This document shows positions 6,262 to 56,911 of a stretch of 64,000 bases of DNA, one piece after another. The stretch is from a virus (Duplodnaviria; Caudoviricetes), in IMG/VR virus record IMGVR_UViG_3300033067_002502, positions 96,001 through 160,000 of that record. One strand, 5' to 3'. A program made the position numbers and the translations under genes. Every line of letters starts with the position of its first letter. Positions within the stretch are counted from its first letter, which is position 1. Below the pieces are notes generated by a model that saw nothing but the letters and a program-made list of their open reading frames with translations, did no database searches and was not told the origin of the DNA.

Positions 6262-8463
6262 ATGGCTGACATTATTTATTCTGAATATCTTTTTTCTGCT
6301 GAAAATCTAGTACAGTCCGGTGGTTTTAGTTGGAGTAATTTAAATAATGCCATAGGAGAAAATTCTTCTTTAACAAGTGCTTCTTTTTCATATGCTGATA
6401 CACCTAATTTTATTACTGACTTTTTTAAAGCGGTATTTGATGATAATAGTCGTATACTTTATTTTCAAACAATTAACGGATATGAGGTAGGAAGTGTAGA
6501 ATATCGTATAAAATATAAAATTATATGGACATCTGCCGCATCAGTTATAGATGTATCTTCTTCTTTCAATCTTGCTCTAAATGATGTTGTTGTAACAGAT
6601 TATTTTCCATCTATAACAAATGGTTCTTTTTATGCAGAATCTGGAAGTGCTGGAGATAGTGAAATTAGAACAATGAGCGTTGTTTTTGAGTCATTAATAA
6701 GCGGGGCTCCTTCTTATGCAGAATTAACAAGCGAAACTTTGAAAGGTTGGATTTCTTTTAATGGCTCTGTTACGGATGACGCTTCTGTAATATGTGAAAT
6801 TTACGAAGTACAGCAAATAATAACTCTTAGAGAGATTGTTCCAGAAATTGTTTATTCTGAGTATCTTCTTGCTGCTGAAAACCTTGCTCAAGGAAGTGGA
6901 ATTATTTGGAATAATCTTGGTAACATAATAGGAGAAAATTCATCTTTAACTGTTTTTTCTAATGCTTATTTTGATATATCTGAAAATTCTGTTTCTGATT
7001 TTCTTGTTGCAAGTTTTAATGACGAAGTTCGTATTCCTTATTTTCAAGCAATTAGTGGGTATCAAATTGGACGTATTGAATATCAGATTAAGTACCAAGG
7101 AATATCTACTGATTATATTTCTGTATTAGATATTGTTGCTGATTATAAACTTTTATTAGAAAATGTTGTTCAAAATAATTTGGTTCCAATTATTGTAAAT
7201 GGAACAATTCATTTAGAAGATTTGGGAAGCGTTGATACTGGAATTAAGACAATGAAAGTGATTTTTGATTCATTGTTAAATGGAGTTCCTTCTTATGATG
7301 ACTTAACGAATAAGACAATTCAAGGCTGGTTATCTTTTAGTCAGTTTAATCTTGATCCGATTAGTCCTGTTTATTGCGATGTTTATGAAATAAAACAAAT
7401 AATAACATTAAGACAGGTTATTTCTGATTCCGTTATATCATTAATTGATGCTGATGCAGGAGTTGAAAGACCTATTCTTATTATGTCTTCTCAGATATCT
7501 GATAGAGGATTTTTTGATCCAGAAACAATACAAACTTTTAATTATATAATAAGGAACGACGGTCCAACAGATTTGATTATAAATTCAATTTCTATTGACA
7601 CTTTAAATATTATAAGATTCGGAATTGCTGGTTCTTTCCCTATTACAATTGAATCTGGTACTAGTTTGTCTTTGTCTTTAGATGTTTCAGTTCCCTATGT
7701 TGGGGCTTTTGTAAATGAACGCATTACTATAAATAATAATTCTAGAAATAATCCTAATTTTATTTTAGCTTTTACCTATTATGGAATTATTTATACTTCG
7801 ACTGTTCCTTTATTAGAGTCTAGATATAATGGAATTTTATTAGAGAAAAATAAAGTTCTTGCTCTTTCTTCTGTTCCATTAAATATATCAAATATAATTT
7901 CAATAGAAGTCTATAATAAAGGAACTAAAGATCTTGCTATTACTTCGTATACTATTGCAGGAAATGCAACAATTGCAGCTGGAACTACTCTTGAATCTGG
8001 TCTTTCTATACAGCCAAATGATTTTAGATTACTTAATTTAAATTTAAATTCAGCTCCTTTAGGAAATAAATCTGCAACTGTAATAATAATATCAAATGAT
8101 GCTGTAAATAATCCTTTTATATTTACTTTTGCATATTCTGTTTTGAATCAGTCAAACGTGGTTCTTTATAATGGATCTAGTATCTTGTCTAACGGAGATA
8201 TTGTTGATTTAACATCTATAGATAAAGGGAAGTCTCTTACAAAATCGTATATTTTAAAGAATAGTGGTATATATAAGACGGTTTCAATTGATTCTATTAT
8301 CGTGGATAGTAGTTTGACTGTTTCTAGTTCTTCTAGTTTTCCTTTTTCTTTATTGCCAAATGCTGAGAATTCTTTAGTTTTTAACATAATGTTTGATACA
8401 GAAAATGCAGGATTAAAAGAAGGGTCTTTTACTATTAATTATAACGAAGGAAGTGTTCCTTAA
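6262..8463 (+). CDS. Structural protein with a duplicated ~190-aa N-terminal domain plus three ASH/choice-of-anchor-D-like domains
   Basis: IIYSEYLFSAENL...IGENSSLT is repeated as IVYSEYLLAAENL...IGENSSLT. C-terminal motifs IRNDGPTDLII, VYNKGTKDLAI..IISNDA and LKNSG. Confidence 0.6.
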   Translation: MADIIYSEYLFSAENLVQSGGFSWSNLNNAIGENSSLTSASFSYADTPNFITDFFKAVFDDNSRILYFQTINGYEVGSVEYRIKYKIIWTSAASVIDVSSSFNLALNDVVVTDYFPSITNGSFYAESGSAGDSEIRTMSVVFESLISGAPSYAELTSETLKGWISFNGSVTDDASVICEIYEVQQIITLREIVPEIVYSEYLLAAENLAQGSGIIWNNLGNIIGENSSLTVFSNAYFDISENSVSDFLVASFNDEVRIPYFQAISGYQIGRIEYQIKYQGISTDYISVLDIVADYKLLLENVVQNNLVPIIVNGTIHLEDLGSVDTGIKTMKVIFDSLLNGVPSYDDLTNKTIQGWLSFSQFNLDPISPVYCDVYEIKQIITLRQVISDSVISLIDADAGVERPILIMSSQISDRGFFDPETIQTFNYIIRNDGPTDLIINSISIDTLNIIRFGIAGSFPITIESGTSLSLSLDVSVPYVGAFVNERITINNNSRNNPNFILAFTYYGIIYTSTVPLLESRYNGILLEKNKVLALSSVPLNISNIISIEVYNKGTKDLAITSYTIAGNATIAAGTTLESGLSIQPNDFRLLNLNLNSAPLGNKSATVIIISNDAVNNPFIFTFAYSVLNQSNVVLYNGSSILSNGDIVDLTSIDKGKSLTKSYILKNSGIYKTVSIDSIIVDSSLTVSSSSSFPFSLLPNAENSLVFNIMFDTENAGLKEGSFTINYNEGSVP

Positions 8464-48601: not shown

Positions 48602-51154
48602 ATGTCAGAAATAGAAATAGAAAAAGAAAATCCATATATATGTTTAAGAGTTACAGATTCTACTACATTTATTATAGGTAAGCTATCTAAAGATATTTAT
48701 AAAGAGTTAAAAACAACTCTTGGTTATAAAGATCCTACTGCTGCGTGGAAAAATATTGATCCTGAAAAATGGGATGGATATGTAACTACGGTTTGTTATA
48801 ATAAACAATGGTGTAGGTGTTCTATAAAGAAAGATGGAGTTCATTTCCCAACTGGTCTATATAGTAGAGCTATTGATTTTTTTAAAGCCTACAGTATTCC
48901 AGTTACTGTTGTTGATGATCGTAGTAAATTTTCTAATAATAAAATTGACATTAGGACTAGTTCTTCTTTTCAGACTAGAGATTATCAACAAACTATTATT
49001 AATGATTCCGTTCAAAGACAAAGAGGTATTATAAAACTGGCCACTGGGGGCGGAAAGTGTTTGGGAAAAGGTACTCCTGTATTAATGCATGATGGTAAAA
49101 TCAAAAATGTAGAAGATATAAAGTCAGGAGATCTTTTGATGGGACCAGATTCCACTCCTAGAAAGGTTCTTTCTACTATTTCTGGTTATGATCAAATGTA
49201 TAGAATTGTTCCTAAAAGAGGAACTCCGTTTATTGTAAATGAACCTCATATACTTTCTCTTAAAATGACTCGCGGCAGTAAAAAAGATGGTCAAATAGTA
49301 AATATATCAGTTAAAGATTATCTTGAAAAAAATAAAACCTTTAAACATGTTGCAAAAGGTTATCGAGTTCCTGTTGATTTTACTTTGAAAAAAGTGCCAC
49401 TTGATCCATATTTTATAGGAATTTGGCTTGGAGATGGTAGATCTGATTCTCCAGAAATTAGTTCTAAAGATTCAGAAATAGTTGAGTATTTGAAGCATTT
49501 TGGTTCTTTACATAATCTTAAGTTAATAACTAAGGTTTATGGCAATAGGTGTCCTCAGCATGCTATTTCTAACGGTCGTAAGGGAGGCGTAGTTGTTAAT
49601 TCTGTTTTGAATTCTTTAAGAAAATTAAATCTTATTAATAATAAACATATTCCATTTATTTATAAAGTTAATGGAAAAAAGCAACGATTGCAATTATTAG
49701 CAGGACTTATTGATACGGACGGAAGCCTTCATAATGGAGGATATGATTATATTTCAATTAGCGAAACACTAGCTAATGATGTTGCTTTTGTAGCAAGATC
49801 TCTAGGTTTAAAAGCCGTGGTTTCTCCATGTATAAAAACATGTTGTAATAATGGTAAAAAGGGTAATTATTATCGAGTATCTATTAGTGGAGATTGTAGT
49901 ATTATTCCTGTAAAAATTGAAAGAAAAAAAGCTCATGTAAGAAAACAAAAAAAAGATTGTTTGATGTTTGGATTTAATGTTGAAAAACTTGGAATTGATG
50001 AATATTTTGGTTTTGAAATAGATGGTGATAGGCTTTTTTTATTAGGCGATTTTACTGTAACTCATAATACGGCAGTAGGAGCAGGAATTATTAGTAGTTT
50101 AGGAGTTGCTCCTTTTATTTTTTATGTTACATCTCAAGATTTGCTTACTCAAGCAAAAAACGAGTTTGAAAAGTTTTTAACAGTAGATGGAAAGCCTATT
50201 GAAATTGGCGTAATTGGAGCAGGACAGTGTAACATTAAAGATGTTAATATAATGACAATCCAAACAGCAATTAGAGCTTTGGGAGAAAAATTTACTAAGT
50301 TTGATGAAGAAGACGAACCAGAGAAAATATCTGAAGCAACAAAATCCAGATACGAAGCAATTGCTGATTTGATTCATAATGCAAAAGCTTTTATTGCAGA
50401 CGAAACACAACATTGGGCTGCTGAAACTTGTCAAGTCATTGCAGATCATTCTTATAATGCAAGATTCAGGTTTGGAATGTCAGCTACGCCTTGGAGAGAT
50501 CTTGGAGATGATCTTTTAATTGATGCATGTTTTGGTAGAGTAATTGCGGATATAAATGCATCTTTCTTGATTAAGAAAGGAATTCTGGTAAGACCAACAA
50601 TCTACTTTGTTCATACAAAAAAGAAATTTGATGATTATGATATTACTTATTCAACTGCTTATAAAGAAGGAATTGCTGAAAATGAAGAGCGTAATTTAAT
50701 TATTGCTAATATAGCTCAAAATATGGTTAAAGAAGGTAGAAATATTCTTATTCTAATAAAGCATATACCTCATGGACTTCTTTTAGAATCTCTTATTCCT
50801 GATAGCATTTTTCTTCATGGATCTCACTCAGGTAAAGCAAGAAAAAAACATCTTGATAAAATGAGAGATAAAAAAGTTTCAGTTACAATAGCTACAAGTA
50901 TATTTGATGAAGGTGTTGATGTTAAGTGTCTTGATGGTCTTATTTTGGGAGGATCGGGTAAGTCTCAAACTCGTGCATTGCAAAGGATTGGTAGAGTTAT
51001 TAGAACTTATGAAGATAACTTAACTGGATTCGTTAAAAAAGATGCATATGTTGTTGATTTTCATGATAACATGAAATACATGTATACTCATAGTAAAGCA
51101 AGAAGAACAATATACGAAACTGAACCAGAATTTATCATTAAGGATTTTAGGTAA
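48602..51154 (+). CDS. Superfamily 2 (UvsW/SSL2-like) DNA helicase containing an intein
   Basis: RDYQ Q-motif; ATGGGK|intein|T Walker A; ADETQH; GMSATP; IFDEGVDV; QRIGRVIR. Confidence 0.9.
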   Translation: MSEIEIEKENPYICLRVTDSTTFIIGKLSKDIYKELKTTLGYKDPTAAWKNIDPEKWDGYVTTVCYNKQWCRCSIKKDGVHFPTGLYSRAIDFFKAYSIPVTVVDDRSKFSNNKIDIRTSSSFQTRDYQQTIINDSVQRQRGIIKLATGGGKCLGKGTPVLMHDGKIKNVEDIKSGDLLMGPDSTPRKVLSTISGYDQMYRIVPKRGTPFIVNEPHILSLKMTRGSKKDGQIVNISVKDYLEKNKTFKHVAKGYRVPVDFTLKKVPLDPYFIGIWLGDGRSDSPEISSKDSEIVEYLKHFGSLHNLKLITKVYGNRCPQHAISNGRKGGVVVNSVLNSLRKLNLINNKHIPFIYKVNGKKQRLQLLAGLIDTDGSLHNGGYDYISISETLANDVAFVARSLGLKAVVSPCIKTCCNNGKKGNYYRVSISGDCSIIPVKIERKKAHVRKQKKDCLMFGFNVEKLGIDEYFGFEIDGDRLFLLGDFTVTHNTAVGAGIISSLGVAPFIFYVTSQDLLTQAKNEFEKFLTVDGKPIEIGVIGAGQCNIKDVNIMTIQTAIRALGEKFTKFDEEDEPEKISEATKSRYEAIADLIHNAKAFIADETQHWAAETCQVIADHSYNARFRFGMSATPWRDLGDDLLIDACFGRVIADINASFLIKKGILVRPTIYFVHTKKKFDDYDITYSTAYKEGIAENEERNLIIANIAQNMVKEGRNILILIKHIPHGLLLESLIPDSIFLHGSHSGKARKKHLDKMRDKKVSVTIATSIFDEGVDVKCLDGLILGGSGKSQTRALQRIGRVIRTYEDNLTGFVKKDAYVVDFHDNMKYMYTHSKARRTIYETEPEFIIKDFR
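49058..50068 (+). mobile_element. Cis intein (337 aa) with a LAGLIDADG homing endonuclease, in helicase Walker A
   Basis: Starts CLGKGTPVLMHDG and ends FLLGDFTVTHN/T. Block B VNEPHILSL. Endonuclease motifs YFIGIWLGDG and LLAGLIDTDG. Confidence 0.95.
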
Positions 51155-51157
51155 TAA

Positions 51158-52261
51158 ATGGCACGTAAAAGAGAACATTATGATAATATATTTGCAGAAA
51201 CAGATAAAGATAAATTTCTTGTTAATGCTATAAACTCGCAATCTGATTTTGCTTCAACATCAAACCCTTATGTTGGGAATAAGAGAAAAATACTTGTTGA
51301 TATAGTTATGACTGTCTACGAGAATCTTCGTTATGACGAGATTAATTATGTATGTGACCTTTTTGCTGGAAGCTCTGTTGTTGGCTCTTTCTTTAAGAAG
51401 TTAGGCAAAACCGTTTATTCTAACGAGTTGCTTAAGTCTTCTTATATGAATGGAGTCGCTTTACAAAATAGCGATGGCTCTGAAATAACTCCTAATGCTT
51501 GGGAGTTTATGCTCAACAATAAAAACAAGAACGCTGATAAGTTTGTTGAGGCTAAGTATGCTGGTAAGAGGTTTACTCAAAAGGAAGCAGAGTTTATAGA
51601 CAACTATTACGCAAATGCGGAAGAGTTGTATGGCAAAACTGATGGCGGTAAGTATTGTATTTTGCAATCCACTATCATGCAGTTTATAATGTCTCATTGC
51701 TTTGTTGGAGGTAGACTCAATAGTGGGCAAGTTATAGCTTCCCTTGACCATAGATTGCAACATCAAAGAAATAATAACTGCGAAATGAATTTTAGTAAGA
51801 TGAAGCCATTTGCTTTCAATTGTGGAGGTCCACAATCTTACTTTTCAAACTCTGATGTTTTTGATTTCCTTAAAAAAGGATTTGACAAGAATCCAGATCT
51901 TATATACATAGATCCTCCTTATGGTGGTCAGCAAAGCGATTATGCTTCTATGTATCAGTTTTTTGAGGAATATTTAGCTAGAACAAATTTTGATAATATT
52001 TCATATTTAAAGGGCACTTCTGATAAGTTTTCTAAGTCCAAAACTTATAAGGATTCTTTTGCAGAAGTGTTAATAGCGTTGCCGAAGGAGTCTTGCTGGA
52101 TGATTAGCTACAATGATAGTAGTTGGGCAGATATTGATATAATCGTAGATATGCTTCGTAAACATAAGACAATAGTAACCGTTAAAGAGATAAAATACTC
52201 ATACAAGCATCGTTCATCAGAAAATGTATCAGGTTTTGAATATTTAATTATTGGACAGTAA
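51158..52261 (+). CDS. DNA adenine methyltransferase (D12/alpha class)
   Basis: YVGNKRK, then DLFAGS (motif I) preceding IYIDPPY (motif IV); ISYN. Confidence 0.85.
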   Translation: MARKREHYDNIFAETDKDKFLVNAINSQSDFASTSNPYVGNKRKILVDIVMTVYENLRYDEINYVCDLFAGSSVVGSFFKKLGKTVYSNELLKSSYMNGVALQNSDGSEITPNAWEFMLNNKNKNADKFVEAKYAGKRFTQKEAEFIDNYYANAEELYGKTDGGKYCILQSTIMQFIMSHCFVGGRLNSGQVIASLDHRLQHQRNNNCEMNFSKMKPFAFNCGGPQSYFSNSDVFDFLKKGFDKNPDLIYIDPPYGGQQSDYASMYQFFEEYLARTNFDNISYLKGTSDKFSKSKTYKDSFAEVLIALPKESCWMISYNDSSWADIDIIVDMLRKHKTIVTVKEIKYSYKHRSSENVSGFEYLIIGQ

Positions 52262-52262
52262 C

Positions 52263-53204
52263 ATGTCAAGAAAGAATAAAAAAATGAAAGTAGAAGATCC
52301 TATGTTTGATTTGATTTCTATTAGTCAAAAAAACGCAATAGAAGGGATTGGTCCTAAAAATAAGAAAAAACAGCCTTCTATTTTTGATGTTATTGGAAAT
52401 AATTCTTTAGAAATCACAAATTCAGAAATATCTGAATCTAAAAATCTTCCAGATAAGAAATTTCTTAAATCAGGAATTTCGGATTGGAAAAATCTTCCAA
52501 TAAAAAGGGCTGTTTCTTCTATGAATAAACCTGTTGAAGATTGGCATTCTGAGCAATTTTATATTTATTTTTCAAGATTATATAAGGAAAAATATCCTCT
52601 ATCTAATCTTGAAACATCAACTAGAGCTGGTATTACTTTTATGAAAAAGTTATTAGAAGATTTTAAAGAAACTCTTAATAGGGAGTTTAATCCAGAAGTA
52701 ATAAAAAAATATCTTGATTGGTTTATTAAAAACGAGCTTGATATATTTATTTCCCAAAAAGGAAAATTTGTATTACAAGATCTTCGTTCAAAAAAAGCAA
52801 TGAGAAGGTTTGATAATCAACACAGAATAGAAGAATCTGCAATTGTCGTTGATGAAGTTGTTTCTGTAGTCCCTGATAATGCATTTAAAAGAATGACATT
52901 GATATTTAAAGCAAGTCGAATCAATTTTATAATGAAATACGGAGTTGTTATATCTCTTTATTGGCTTATAAATGAAAAATCAATAAAACCAGATGAAGCA
53001 AAAGATATTATTATAGCTATACTAAAGGATACAAATAAAGAAGGAGAATCAAGTATTGAAAAAGTAAAAATTATTACTTCTTCTTTTTCTCCTTATCCAT
53101 TGACGTATAATAATAATCTCTTAAAAGATATATTTAGTTTTCTTAAAATGGAAATTAGTGATATTCAATTTTCAGAAAAATCCAAAGATATTATTTTTGG
53201 ATAA
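52263..53204 (+). CDS. Hypothetical protein (replication module)
   Basis: The ATG at 52263 directly follows the upstream stop. No recognisable motif. Confidence 0.6.
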   Translation: MSRKNKKMKVEDPMFDLISISQKNAIEGIGPKNKKKQPSIFDVIGNNSLEITNSEISESKNLPDKKFLKSGISDWKNLPIKRAVSSMNKPVEDWHSEQFYIYFSRLYKEKYPLSNLETSTRAGITFMKKLLEDFKETLNREFNPEVIKKYLDWFIKNELDIFISQKGKFVLQDLRSKKAMRRFDNQHRIEESAIVVDEVVSVVPDNAFKRMTLIFKASRINFIMKYGVVISLYWLINEKSIKPDEAKDIIIAILKDTNKEGESSIEKVKIITSSFSPYPLTYNNNLLKDIFSFLKMEISDIQFSEKSKDIIFG

Positions 53205-53341: not shown

Positions 53342-54352
53342 ATGCCTAAAGAAGAAGAACTGGATTTTAGAAAAAAACATATTAGTATGGCTACGAAAGA
53401 GTTTAACAACAATTTTATAGCGTTGCTTAGAACCAGAACTCAGGTTATTTATATATCTAGTAATGAAGAAAAAAGGCTTATTGAATATCTTCATAGCGTT
53501 TCTATGGATAGAGGATATGAAGCCTTTGAATGGGATTGTTTTTCTCTTTTAAGGAAATTAGGTTCAAAAGAAAAGATAACGATTACTTCGGGTTTAGATA
53601 TTAGATATCCAGAACCAATTCTTACTTTCATTATAGAAGAATTAGAAAAAAGAGAAAAGAAGAAAGAAGATGGTAATGGTGCTTTATATATATTGTGTGA
53701 TTTTTATAGATATCTATCTCCAGATAGGTGTAATCCTCAAATAGAAAGACAAATAAAGCATATCAATAATCTTACTACAAATTGTCATGTTATATTTACA
53801 GGTCCAACTTATATAAACAATCAATCTCTTGAAAAAGAAATATCTGTTTTAGATTTTCCTTTTCCTAATGAAAAAGAGATAAAAGAAGTATTAACAAGTC
53901 TTACAAATGCTGAAAAAGTAAAAACAGGAATACCTGGTATCAGCAAAATAATGGAAAAAAATGAAGAAGAATTGATTAATTCAGTAAAAGGACTTACTTT
54001 GATGGAGTCTCGCCATGCTTATTCTAAGTCTATTGTTATGGCTAATCAATTAGGAATAAAGCCTTTAGATATAAATTTAATATTACAAGAGAAAAAAGAA
54101 ATTATCAAAAAAACTGATATTTTAGAATATGTTGATTCTAATAATACTACAATAGATAATGTTGGAGGACTTGACGATCTTGTTCGTTGGTTGAATATTC
54201 GCAAGGTATCTTTTTCTAAAGAGGCTATTGATTACGGACTAAAACCTCCAAAGGGAGTTTTGCTATTAGGGCTACCAGGATGTGTATTAGGAAATACAAA
54301 AATAAGAATTAGAAAGAAAAAAGAAGGGAAACATCTCATATACGTTTTGTAA
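53342..54352 (+). CDS. Ycf46-like AAA+ ATPase, N-terminal half, fused to a 23-aa split-intein N fragment
   Basis: EEKR, DFPFP, EK.EII.K..ILEY, VGGLDDL..WL and PKGVLLLGLPG are Ycf46-family features. The ORF stops 23 aa after GLPG with CVLGNTKIRIRKKKEGKHLIYVL. Confidence 0.9.
   Translation: MPKEEELDFRKKHISMATKEFNNNFIALLRTRTQVIYISSNEEKRLIEYLHSVSMDRGYEAFEWDCFSLLRKLGSKEKITITSGLDIRYPEPILTFIIEELEKREKKKEDGNGALYILCDFYRYLSPDRCNPQIERQIKHINNLTTNCHVIFTGPTYINNQSLEKEISVLDFPFPNEKEIKEVLTSLTNAEKVKTGIPGISKIMEKNEEELINSVKGLTLMESRHAYSKSIVMANQLGIKPLDINLILQEKKEIIKKTDILEYVDSNNTTIDNVGGLDDLVRWLNIRKVSFSKEAIDYGLKPPKGVLLLGLPGCVLGNTKIRIRKKKEGKHLIYVL
54281..54349 (+). mobile_element. Split intein N-fragment (IntN, 23 aa)
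   Basis: Intein block A (C-V-L-G-N-T-K-I) begins exactly inside Walker A (GLPG|C). Confidence 0.85.
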
Positions 54353-54493
54353 TCAGAATAATTTAGAGTACAGAATGGTTGATGTTAGAATTATAGAAAT
54401 TTCCCAATTAGCTGAAATGTATTTTTCAAAACAGATAAGACTTAATAAAATATCAGAAGAACGATTTTTAACTTTAATTAAGAGAATTAACAA

Positions 54494-54871
54494 ATGAATT
54501 TATATGAAGAAATAGAAATTGAAATACAAGATTTTTTTGCTATGGCAGAAAAAGAAGAAGGAATTTATGAAATAGATACTCCTGACGGTTGGCAAGAAAT
54601 AGGATCTTTGATTAAAAAAAACAAAAAAGAGTGTTATATATTGCGAATGAGTAATGGAATTGAACTAGGATGCTCTAGTGAACATTTGGTTTTAACTGAA
54701 AATGGGTGGAAAAAAACTAAAGATTTGGATGTTCAATTCGATTCGGTTTTATCTAAAAATGGAAGTACTTCTCTAATTGCAAAGGAATATGTTGGAATAA
54801 AAAATACATATGATTTGGAAGTTTTACACGAAAATCATAGATATTATTCTAATTCTATTATTTCACATAAT
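54494..54871 (+). mobile_element. Split intein C-fragment (IntC, 126 aa, no endonuclease)
   Basis: Lacks block A. Has TPDGW, block B LGCSSEHLVLT, block F TYDLEV..NHRYYSN and block G ISHN/C. Confidence 0.88.
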
Positions 54872-56911
54872 TGTGGAAAGTCTCTAACAGCAAAAGCAAC
54901 AGCAAGTGCGTATAACATGCCTCTTCTTCGTTTAGATTTTGGTAAAATGTTTAATTCTCTTGTTGGAGAAAGTGAAAAGATAGCTCGTCATGCAATTAAG
55001 CTTGCTGAAACAGTTGCTCCTTGTGTTAGCGGAGAATCTATAGTATATGATGATAATGGTAAATCTTATAAAATAAAAGATCTTGTAGAAAACGGCAATG
55101 GTGATAAGCCTATGTATACATATTCTTTAAATGAAAAAACATGGAAATTAGAAAAAACTAAAGTAAAAGCAGTTATCAAGCATGCAGAAAAAAAGAAAAT
55201 GCTTAGGATCTCTTCATCTACAGGTTCTATTGATGTTACAGAAGATCACAAGATGATGGTAAATAGAGAAGGAAATCTTTTATGGGTTGAATCTAAAGAT
55301 TTAACAAAGTCAGACGTTCTTGTTGTTTCTAAGACACTTGTTCGTACACAAAAGATTTTGAATATTAGAGAAATATTTCCTAATAAGAAAGACAAGAATA
55401 TAACACTAAGATCTGGTGGGAAAATGCATTCAGCTGATGTTTCTGTATCACTTATTAGTCTTATGCATTTGGCTGTTATATCTGGAATGATTGATTCTAG
55501 CGGTTCGTGTAATGAAGAAACTGGAGATATTTTGTTTTCTCATGCAAATATCTCTATTTTACATTTTTTGGCATCTATGATGAGCGAGGCTTTTTTGACT
55601 GAGCCTCACGTTGGTAAAGATTTTGTTAAATTAAATAACAAAGTTGTTGCAAAAATGATTTCTCATTTTTTAGATAATGTTGGATCTCAAAATGAAGAAA
55701 TAATTGGATGTTATTTGGGTGGGCATTTCCACGCTAGTGGAATCTTTGGCTTTGTTGATAAGGATGAAGATCCTTCAAGAAAACCATATGTTCAATTTTC
55801 TATTTTAACAGAAGGTGTATTTGATAGGATTCGTAAATCTTTGCTTGTTTATGGTATTATATCTTTTAAGTCTTTAAAAACAATGATTATCATAGATAAT
55901 AATCATATTGAAACATTTTTCCAAAAAGTTCCTATTCTTACAAAAAAAAGAGCTGTAGAAGTAAACAATTTTATAAATCATATTGAAAAATATCCTCCAA
56001 AATCAATAAATATGTTTGGATATAAATTTGGTAAATCGTTATTAAGTTTAAAGTCTGATTTTGGAATTACAGATGAAAAGTATGATAGCATATCTATGTT
56101 TGAAGAAAGCAATGCTGTTATGCAATATGATGTTGCTTCTTATTTGAATAGAGAAATTAAGAAAAATAGAAAAGAAAAAATAGATTGTCCTATTACTAAA
56201 TTAGTTGAATCAGATATAGTTTGTGTAAAGATTTATTCAATAGATTCTGTTGAAGAGCAGTGGGCTTACGATTTATCTTGTGAGGGTAATAATAATTTCT
56301 TTGCTAATGGATTTCTTTGCCATAATTGCATTCTTTGGGCTGATGAAATAGAGAAAGGTTTAGCTGGTGGAGTTGGTTCTGGATCTGGTGATAGCGGAAC
56401 AACAAAAAGAGTTATTGGAACTTTTTTGACTTGGCTTCAAGAAAAGACAGCTCCAGTTTTTGTTATATGTACAGCTAATAATGTTCAAGATATTCCTCCA
56501 GAATTTATGAGAGCAGGTCGTTTTGATGAGGTATTTTTTGTTGATTTGCCAAGCAGTAAGGGTAGAGAGCAAATATTCAAAGTATTACTTAAAAAATTCA
56601 AATACGATCCAAATCTTTTTGATATTAAGGAATTATGTCTTTATACAAAAAATTATAGCGGTGCTGAAATCGAAAAAGCTATAGAAAATGCAATGTTTGA
56701 ATGCTTTTGTGATAATAAAAAAGAAATGCAAACAATAGATCTTGTTTTATCTTGCAGAAGCATAACTCCTTTATCAGAAACAAGAGATAAAGAATTCCAA
56801 GAAATGAGAACTTGGGCTAAGACTAGATGCAAATTTGCAAATACAGAAGAGTATGGTGGAAACGAAAAAGTAAATAAAAAAGAAATTGTAGATCTTGATT
56901 TCAATCAGTGA
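54494..56911 (+). CDS. Split-intein C fragment plus the Ycf46-like AAA+ ATPase C-terminal half, carrying a second cis intein
   Basis: ...SHN|CGKSLTAKA...LLRLDFG...VGESE...AP|intein|CILWADEIEK...FLTWLQE...TAN...PPEFMRAGRFDE.FFVDLP...YSGAEIE. Confidence 0.92.
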   Translation: MNLYEEIEIEIQDFFAMAEKEEGIYEIDTPDGWQEIGSLIKKNKKECYILRMSNGIELGCSSEHLVLTENGWKKTKDLDVQFDSVLSKNGSTSLIAKEYVGIKNTYDLEVLHENHRYYSNSIISHNCGKSLTAKATASAYNMPLLRLDFGKMFNSLVGESEKIARHAIKLAETVAPCVSGESIVYDDNGKSYKIKDLVENGNGDKPMYTYSLNEKTWKLEKTKVKAVIKHAEKKKMLRISSSTGSIDVTEDHKMMVNREGNLLWVESKDLTKSDVLVVSKTLVRTQKILNIREIFPNKKDKNITLRSGGKMHSADVSVSLISLMHLAVISGMIDSSGSCNEETGDILFSHANISILHFLASMMSEAFLTEPHVGKDFVKLNNKVVAKMISHFLDNVGSQNEEIIGCYLGGHFHASGIFGFVDKDEDPSRKPYVQFSILTEGVFDRIRKSLLVYGIISFKSLKTMIIIDNNHIETFFQKVPILTKKRAVEVNNFINHIEKYPPKSINMFGYKFGKSLLSLKSDFGITDEKYDSISMFEESNAVMQYDVASYLNREIKKNRKEKIDCPITKLVESDIVCVKIYSIDSVEEQWAYDLSCEGNNNFFANGFLCHNCILWADEIEKGLAGGVGSGSGDSGTTKRVIGTFLTWLQEKTAPVFVICTANNVQDIPPEFMRAGRFDEVFFVDLPSSKGREQIFKVLLKKFKYDPNLFDIKELCLYTKNYSGAEIEKAIENAMFECFCDNKKEMQTIDLVLSCRSITPLSETRDKEFQEMRTWAKTRCKFANTEEYGGNEKVNKKEIVDLDFNQ
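55022..56326 (+). mobile_element. Cis intein (435 aa) with a degenerate LAGLIDADG region, just before Walker B
   Basis: CVSGESIVYD...VTEDHKMM...AYDLSCEGNNNFFANGFLCHN/C. Endonuclease motifs are eroded to ISGMIDSSG and YLGGHFHASG. Confidence 0.92.

Follow-up and report, generated by a model that had tools for sequence, protein, structure and literature searches.

A predicted split intein in the Walker A motif of a phage AAA+ ATPase, with the remnant of an endonuclease gene between its halves

The window analysed here is a 64,000-nt stretch (positions 96,001 to 160,000) of the IMG/VR virus record IMGVR_UViG_3300033067_002502, which measures 170,416 bp in full. On its plus strand lie two neighbouring genes that, judged from their sequences, are the two halves of one classical-clade AAA+ ATPase (PF00004; phrog_8638) of an uncultured phage with a genome of ~170 kb. 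The first gene ends in a short N-terminal intein piece (IntN) and the second opens with the matching C-terminal piece (IntC). The locus comprises the following features.

53342-54352, + strand: gene 1, 336 aa, consisting of a 313-aa N-extein and the 23-aa tail CVLGNTKIRIRKKKEGKHLIYVL, closed by TAA
53342-54280, + strand: 313-aa N-extein of the AAA+ ATPase, which closes with LLLGLPG (first half of Walker A); phrog_8638; homologues P0002-P0011
54281-54352, + strand: IntN, 23 aa (block A only), plus TAA; net charge +6; conserved in the related loci L010, L013, L015, L016, L017 and L018
54353-54493, no strand: intergenic gap, 141 nt, 23% G+C, with 8 stops in the shared frame
54375-54497, + strand: 40-codon open reading frame (ORF) left from the 3' end of a free-standing homing endonuclease gene of NUMOD3/TnsA-like type; its TGA and the ATG of IntC overlap (ATGA)
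54494-56911, + strand: gene 2, 805 aa, opening with the 126-aa intein piece
54494-54871, + strand: IntC, 126 aa, acidic at the N-terminus; block B at S61..H64, block F at D107 and H115, block G at H125 and N126
54872-55021, + strand: middle extein, 50 aa, CGKSLTAKA...AETVAP, from the second half of Walker A to just short of Walker B; colinear with L001 and P0004 over both junctions
55022-56326, + strand: second, contiguous intein, 435 aa, CVSGES...FLCHN, with an endonuclease-sized insert, just before Walker B; PF14890, E 9.6e-31
56327-56911, + strand: C-extein, 194 aa plus stop, starting with CILWADEIEK (Walker B), then the AAA lid; PF00004; phrog_8638 positions 365-558

Gene 1 aligns with positions 17-316 of the 568 positions of phrog_8638 (E 5e-38) and gene 2 with positions 365-558, and the PF00004 match in gene 2 has an E-value of 3.6e-19. 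Joining the exteins gives GLPGCGKS, and removal of both inteins restores this Walker A motif together with the Walker B segment CILWADEIEK. The same Walker A pattern occurs in L001, a related viral contig of 170,562 bp, where the homologue is a single 1008-aa ORF in which LLLGMPGCGKSLTAKA runs uninterrupted with an intact GMPGCGKS. Excising both inteins in silico yielded a spliced product of 557 aa, which is colinear with the L001 protein across both junctions (72% identity over 547 aa, one gap) and colinear with P0004, an intein-free homologue of 562 aa, at 49.5% identity. At 31% G+C, the chance of frames of this length staying open is ~1e-13 for 336 codons and ~1e-31 for 805 codons. Between the window and L001 the exteins are more alike (72%) than the second inteins, which share 37% identity at the same site, so the exteins appear to be under the stronger constraint, as expected of a gene still in use.

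At the extein/intein junction of gene 1, GLPG is followed directly by Cys1 of CVLGNTKIRIRKKKEGKHLIYVL, the tail part of which reads KKKEGKHLIYVL. IntC lacks block A, and its end, IISHN, is followed by CGKSLTAKA. The catalytic set is complete across the two pieces, with Cys1, the block B His, the block F Asp, the terminal HN and Cys+1 all present. Charges are unevenly distributed, with 7 K/R and 1 D/E in IntN and 1 K/R and 12 D/E in the first 35 residues of IntC. IntN and IntC belong to separate genes 141 nt apart, and the gap, which is in the same frame as both genes, contains five TAA, two TGA and one TAG; neither a single nonsense mutation nor one reassigned stop codon can therefore explain the split, and stop-codon reassignment was rejected as a candidate because all three kinds are present. 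By these features the element would be a naturally split class-1 intein, broken at the S1 site and inserted inside Walker A (GLPG/CGKS).

An earlier note on this DNA had described the two gene ends (GLPG followed by CVLGNTKIRIRKKKEGKHLIYVL and a stop; IntC without block A, ending ISHN before CGKS), and these were reproduced letter for letter. The restored Walker A motif that it proposed, the many gap stops that it held against a single nonsense mutation and its charge counts were likewise correct. Its coordinates, 53342-54871, stop at the end of IntC, and so leave out the remainder of gene 2, which runs to 56911 and holds the second, contiguous intein. Its name for the protein, a Ycf46-like AAA+ ATPase, stands in its AAA+ part through PF00004, but Ycf46 is a loose label that reaches no curated cut-off and occurs only as part of the JGI name on P0005. 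An NCBIfam scan of the ATPase likewise returned no model at its cut-off, the best being the proteasome-activating nucleotidase with 109 bits against a required 500.

The note had also called for homologues with the same split point, and six independent loci were found. Gene 1 as a query recovered four proteins, 320-350 aa in length, in which a homologous tail closes the protein at the same point; their exteins are ~38-42% identical to the window's where measured. Two further loci came from the IntC side. The IntN tails of the six are as follows.

L010: CVLGNVKIRIKKILNKGKHNIYEE
L015: CVLGDTKIKVKKISDKGNTIILSE
L013: CVCEGTKIRVRKIKAEGKYKIHHE
L016: CVLGKTKIKVKKISNEGRLEIFND...
L017: CVLKNTKVKIKKISNKGKLKIHKK
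L018: CVLGSTRIKIKKIKNEGKLKIYEE

Across IntN the residues C, V, K, I, K, G and I are invariant, with Cys1 conserved in all seven loci. The IntC pieces of L010, L015 and L016 are each exactly 126 aa long and 50-60% identical to that of the window, and in the alignment of these four H64 (preceded by S61), D107, H115 and H125-N126 do not vary. The +1 residue is Cys in the window and in the other orthologues examined and Thr in L010, where positions 7073-7084 read VSHN/TGKS and joining restores GPPGTGKS with a Thr +1 nucleophile. The charge pattern is also kept, with 5-11 K/R versus 1-4 D/E in IntN and 8-12 D/E versus 1-3 K/R in IntC residues 1-35. The split point is thus conserved across loci and is no one-off lesion.

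The relatives also suggest what once lay in the gap. In L010, L015, L017 and L018, a free-standing gene of 284-362 aa separates the IntN and IntC genes, and the gene order of L017 is that of the window. The endonucleases of L015 and L018 carry a zinc ribbon and score above the Pfam cut-offs for NUMOD3 motifs (PF07460) and for a TnsA-like PD-(D/E)xK nuclease domain (PF08722), and the start of the same gene is present in L013 and L014; a PDB sequence search with the relatives' endonuclease gave nothing significant. A fractured gene, with a free-standing endonuclease gene between the halves, is therefore seen in these four loci, and the window has only the 40-codon remnant. Over its full length this ORF can be aligned with the 40 C-terminal residues of the L015 endonuclease (E 3e-4), and its MVDVRI is identical in L018. 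Against a five-sequence endonuclease profile it scored 17.4 bits at positions 266-304, the C-terminal end, a value reached by none of 5000 shuffles (maximum 7.4); a three-sequence profile gave 12.1 bits, again at the C-terminal end, reached by none of 2000 shuffles (maximum 7.6). Because it matches the endonuclease C-terminus, the gap reads as a deletion scar from which the 5' part of the endonuclease gene, some 250-320 codons, has been lost, and the ORF as the leftover 3' end of the gene that once separated both halves. The split would accordingly owe its existence to a homing endonuclease gene that had lain between them, a point overlooked in the earlier note.

Two other sources for the 40-codon ORF were considered and rejected. 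Its IIEISQL resembles IEIQDF, which raised the idea of a third piece of the intein or of an intein segment thrown out of frame, but the Hint fold is already covered by IntN and IntC and the ORF matches the endonuclease C-terminus. The Vsr-like endonuclease found in a dnaE fractured gene of the same genome is a different protein.

The endonuclease has gone in a different way in L016, where the IntN gene directly overlaps the IntC gene. At L016 1279-1386 the IntN is 36 aa long. Its additional stretch, DKKMKQLIKSETK, runs into the IntC start with an ATGA, like the endonuclease genes, and may be what remains of the 3' end of the lost endonuclease gene, joined in frame to IntN. In the database protein P0040 the endonuclease is fused to IntC, and in P0037 an N-terminal endonuclease stump is fused to it. 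Together with the window remnant, these cases indicate that the endonuclease has decayed repeatedly without the intein halves being rejoined.

Could the remnant have acquired a use? One idea, prompted by the ATGA that its stop shares with the IntC start codon, is that after loss of the endonuclease it has been kept as a translational-coupling leader that ties IntC expression to upstream translation, an exapted piece of a selfish gene. Two observations hint in this direction: in the relatives the ORF preceding IntC, which encodes either the endonuclease or IntN, ends anywhere from 28 nt inside the IntC gene to 13 nt short of its start, and a 40-codon frame would be open by chance in ~3% of cases at the base composition of the window. 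A recent deletion accounts for these observations too, and we consider the leader improbable; if it were real, part of a selfish gene would serve as an expression element for a split intein.

To place the intein among known structures, a profile of four IntC pieces was compared with all PDB sequences. The best match was VidaL (6vgv; E 3.5e-16, IntC residues 4-125), followed by DnaX (1.9e-8), gp41-1 (6.7e-7) and then DnaB inteins. Co-folding, which the earlier note had proposed as a check for a single Hint domain, was carried out in three runs with the last 40 residues of gene 1 (IntN plus extein) and the first 136 of gene 2, each with its own alignment. The pair scored 0.89 (runs 0.88-0.89), as against 0.21 for the best of three controls, and thereby cleared a threshold that 58 of 80 solved complexes pass, as do 2 of 110 mismatched pairs. 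The runs share at least 89% of contacts, with partner pLDDT (predicted local distance difference test) values of at least 71. IntN residues G4-K12 are modelled between IntC residues 8-11 and 25-28, and the Cys1 region contacts IntC residues 58-65, 103-107 and 124-127, which correspond to blocks B, F and G and the +1 residue. The fragments are thus predicted to assemble into one Hint fold.

Overall, the proposal of a natural, atypically split intein finds support in the conserved split, the retained catalytic residues, the VidaL homology and the co-fold, and from these features we infer that the fragments trans-splice in infected cells. In the sequence of events that we envisage, the two genes would be co-transcribed, and the acidic start of IntC would capture the basic IntN electrostatically. 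IntN would then slot in as a strand flanked by two strands from the acidic N-terminal region of IntC, completing the Hint fold, and trans-splicing via Cys1, His64, Asp107, His125-Asn126 and Cys+1 would restore GLPGCGKS. Excision of the second intein in cis, just before Walker B, would leave the 557-aa enzyme. The ancestor would have been a fractured gene, with a free-standing NUMOD3/TnsA-like homing endonuclease gene between IntN and IntC, from which a deletion in this genome left the last 40 endonuclease codons as the ORF at 54375-54497. To this combined reading, namely one ATPase with a trans-splicing, S1-split intein in Walker A, a second intein removed in cis, and descent from a fractured gene whose endonuclease was deleted, we assign a probability of roughly 80%.

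Several observations weigh against it. PF14890 on IntC alone scores 21 bits, under its cut-off of 35.8, and the block B position has Ser where Thr is usual. The IntN of the window is one residue shorter than those of its relatives (23 versus 24 aa) and ends in the hydrophobic YVL versus an acidic end in most of them, so its activity could differ from theirs. The exact protein was found on one contig alone, in a metagenome assembly. Finally, the co-fold pass may reflect likeness to the solved VidaL structure instead of binding.

Some of these points recur in the rival explanations. The odd IntN, the deletion scar and the lack of a clear ribosome-binding motif ahead of IntC would all fit a decaying relic, in which the deletion of the endonuclease also disabled the intein or impaired its expression, so that production of the ATPase has ceased and both genes are turning into pseudogenes. 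Such decay is difficult to reconcile with two long ORFs that are intact in AT-rich DNA, with the retention of every catalytic residue, with undisrupted exteins that are 72% identical to L001, and with L016, which likewise has no endonuclease and retains both halves; we regard it as unlikely. Occurrence on a single metagenomic contig might instead point to an assembly or sequencing artefact, the real sequence being a contiguous intein or a full endonuclease gene and the 141-nt gap a collapsed or chimeric join. Here the split itself recurs in six independent assemblies, the remnant is in register with the endonuclease C-terminus and keeps the natural overlap with the IntC start, as a clean biological deletion would, and the gap holds eight stops of three kinds, all of which render an artefact very unlikely.

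The charge complementarity and confident co-fold show association at most, and not chemistry, which leaves room for non-covalent reconstitution: IntN and IntC might be a mere dimerisation module in a two-chain ATPase that never splices. A published precedent is a phage ribonucleotide reductase that a mobile element has broken into fragments (PMC3045599). In the present case, however, an intein module of ~150 aa would remain inside the P-loop, and all loci have retained Cys1, His125-Asn126 and a +1 nucleophile (Cys, with Thr in L010), as expected only if splicing is selected, so that we give this explanation very little credence. It is harder still to credit removal or skipping of the gap at the RNA or translation level (a small intron, ribosomal bypass or frameshift) to produce a contiguous intein, even though both genes share a frame and 141 is divisible by 3. 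Scans of the gap found neither an Rfam family at E<=1 nor a stable RNA fold (z 0.11) nor a terminator, so nothing points to its removal from RNA; an intron or structured RNA was rejected on the first two of these results, and a group I intron would need more space than the gap offers. Moreover, relatives hold an endonuclease gene of ~0.9-1.1 kb there and the L016 genes overlap, so contiguous reading is not conserved, and the gap sequence is already accounted for as an endonuclease remnant.

The whole genome has nine matches to the intein profile and is thus unusually rich in inteins. In the second, contiguous intein of gene 2 the LAGLIDADG-like motifs look eroded (LAVISGMIDSSGS; YLGGHFHASG, with His for the expected acidic residue), and a Pfam scan of gene 2 found no endonuclease-family match. 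At 48602-51154 lies an 850-aa ResIII/Helicase_C helicase with an intein that bears a LAGLIDADG endonuclease (PF05203, PF05204, PF14528). Outside the window, at 163844-167113 of the genome, dnaE contains an apparent second split intein of canonical layout, whose IntC gene reads ...ILVHN/CHAAG; a seemingly intact Vsr-like endonuclease gene (164827-165699) overlaps both of its neighbours. Both split pairs, ATPase and dnaE, would have to coexist in one infection.

The ATPase locus belongs to a replication module, alongside a methyltransferase, a weak DnaC-like loader match, DnaB and a DnaG zinc ribbon. The locus had no blastn match among 50,697 phage records, and tblastn found only AAA-ATPases ~23% identical, in mycobacteriophages and a few others; no cultured relative is therefore at hand. 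A crAss-like identity, suspected from giant ORFs, was dropped after PHROG and Pfam scans gave it no support. Directly upstream of the ATPase N-half, an IF3 homologue (PF05198/PF00707) is encoded in L001 (4391-4948), L010 (4037-4549), L012, L013, L015 and L017. The window has no IF3 gene upstream of the ATPase, the position being taken by an unrelated 317-aa ORF (52251-53204) and then a 137-nt spacer.

How common is this type of split? Searching 1.84 billion representative proteins with the IntC profile returned 2067 relatives at E<=1e-3, 25 of them at E<=1e-30. Counts were made on the 142 best representatives of IntC clusters whose C-end is complete. In 79 of them IntC lies at the protein N-terminus, taken here to mean split, and in at least 22, P0036 (another AAA+ ATPase), P0047 and P0044 among them, the intein is contiguous and its block A can be recognised. 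A Walker-A-like (C/T/S)GK(S/T) directly follows IntC in 75 of 141 of the best representatives, and clusters with an AAA+ host number roughly 15. The S1-type split is thus common in metagenomes though few members have been studied, and the rarity that the earlier note ascribed to splits with a short IntN was overstated, given this abundance in metagenomic proteins, mostly at P-loops. A search of the literature collection at hand found no relevant report of an atypically split intein in an AAA+ ATPase. Two side observations emerged from the same set. The metagenome protein P0036 (680 aa) is a contiguous version with an internal Met at the usual IntC start and an 11-aa linker, MIDIGLSGIDK, after an IntN-like segment, and may have arisen when a split intein that had lost its endonuclease was rejoined in frame. 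In other P-loop proteins, among them P0079, P0081, P0099, P0101, P0104, P0105, P0107 and P0109, a conserved-looking extension of 30-50 aa (...E(I/L)...L(S/T)..EL...F) stands N-terminal to the IntC homology.

Among characterised tools, only a handful of naturally split inteins (AceL-TerL, GOS-TerL, VidaL and PolB16) have an IntN that is small enough to be made by peptide synthesis. The loci described here offer a natural series of seven orthologues that share a conserved basic IntN, have Cys or Thr at +1, and span endonuclease-bearing forms, a remnant-only form, an overlapping-gene form and contiguous relatives. Such a series should be useful for engineering orthogonal or faster S1-split inteins and for examining the role of the extra basic hairpin. 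The possible new tool foreseen in the earlier note remains one, although its value is incremental: natural IntN pieces of 15-37 aa are known, and those of 15-16 aa are already in use (PMC13014065). For intein evolution, the locus would represent a stage past the fractured gene, and an intein that is still split after deletion of the endonuclease supports invasion by a free-standing endonuclease as one route to permanently split inteins. For phage biology, it presents a replication-module ATPase in which Walker A and Walker B both depend on predicted protein splicing.

Among known systems, VidaL (PDB 6vgv/6vgw) is the solved intein most closely related to IntC. VidaL and PolB16 are split directly after strand beta-2 (S1), and AceL-TerL and GOS-TerL after helix alpha-1 (S2) (PMC13014065). 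Like the window intein, VidaL combines an S1 split with an IntN consisting of block A only and depends on cysteine (PMC13014065). In contrast to its 16-aa IntN, those of the window and its relatives have 23-24 aa with a conserved extra basic segment, KKxxEGKxxI, behind the first strand, and the sequences are clearly divergent. PolB16 OarG shares the natural S1 split, a very short IntN (15 aa) and a metagenomic origin, but uses Ser1/Ser+1 with a dispensable block B His, whereas the window intein has Cys1/Cys+1 and a conserved block B His (PMC10189870). The terminase inteins GOS-TerL and AceL-TerL resemble it in their long C-piece (122 aa in GOS-TerL) holding all motifs but N1, their phage origin and their insertion at a conserved catalytic site (PMC2677866), and differ in being split at S2 instead of S1 (PMC13014065). 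The fractured genes of Dassa et al. (2009) include a terminase case broken after motif N1 with a 122-aa C-piece (PMC2677866), and their layout, with an endonuclease gene between the halves, is exactly that of L010, L015, L017 and L018 (PMC2677866). The endonuclease type differs, being NUMOD3/TnsA-like in the relatives, with the 40-codon remnant in the window, as opposed to GIY-YIG or Vsr-like in known fractured genes. What appears to be new here is the presence of such an endonuclease gene between the halves in four relatives, together with the window's remnant of one. The host, an AAA+ ATPase, falls outside the eight host types of PMC13014065. Taken together, the window intein is probably best described as a VidaL-like S1 split intein in a new host protein, with an endonuclease remnant as added evolutionary detail.

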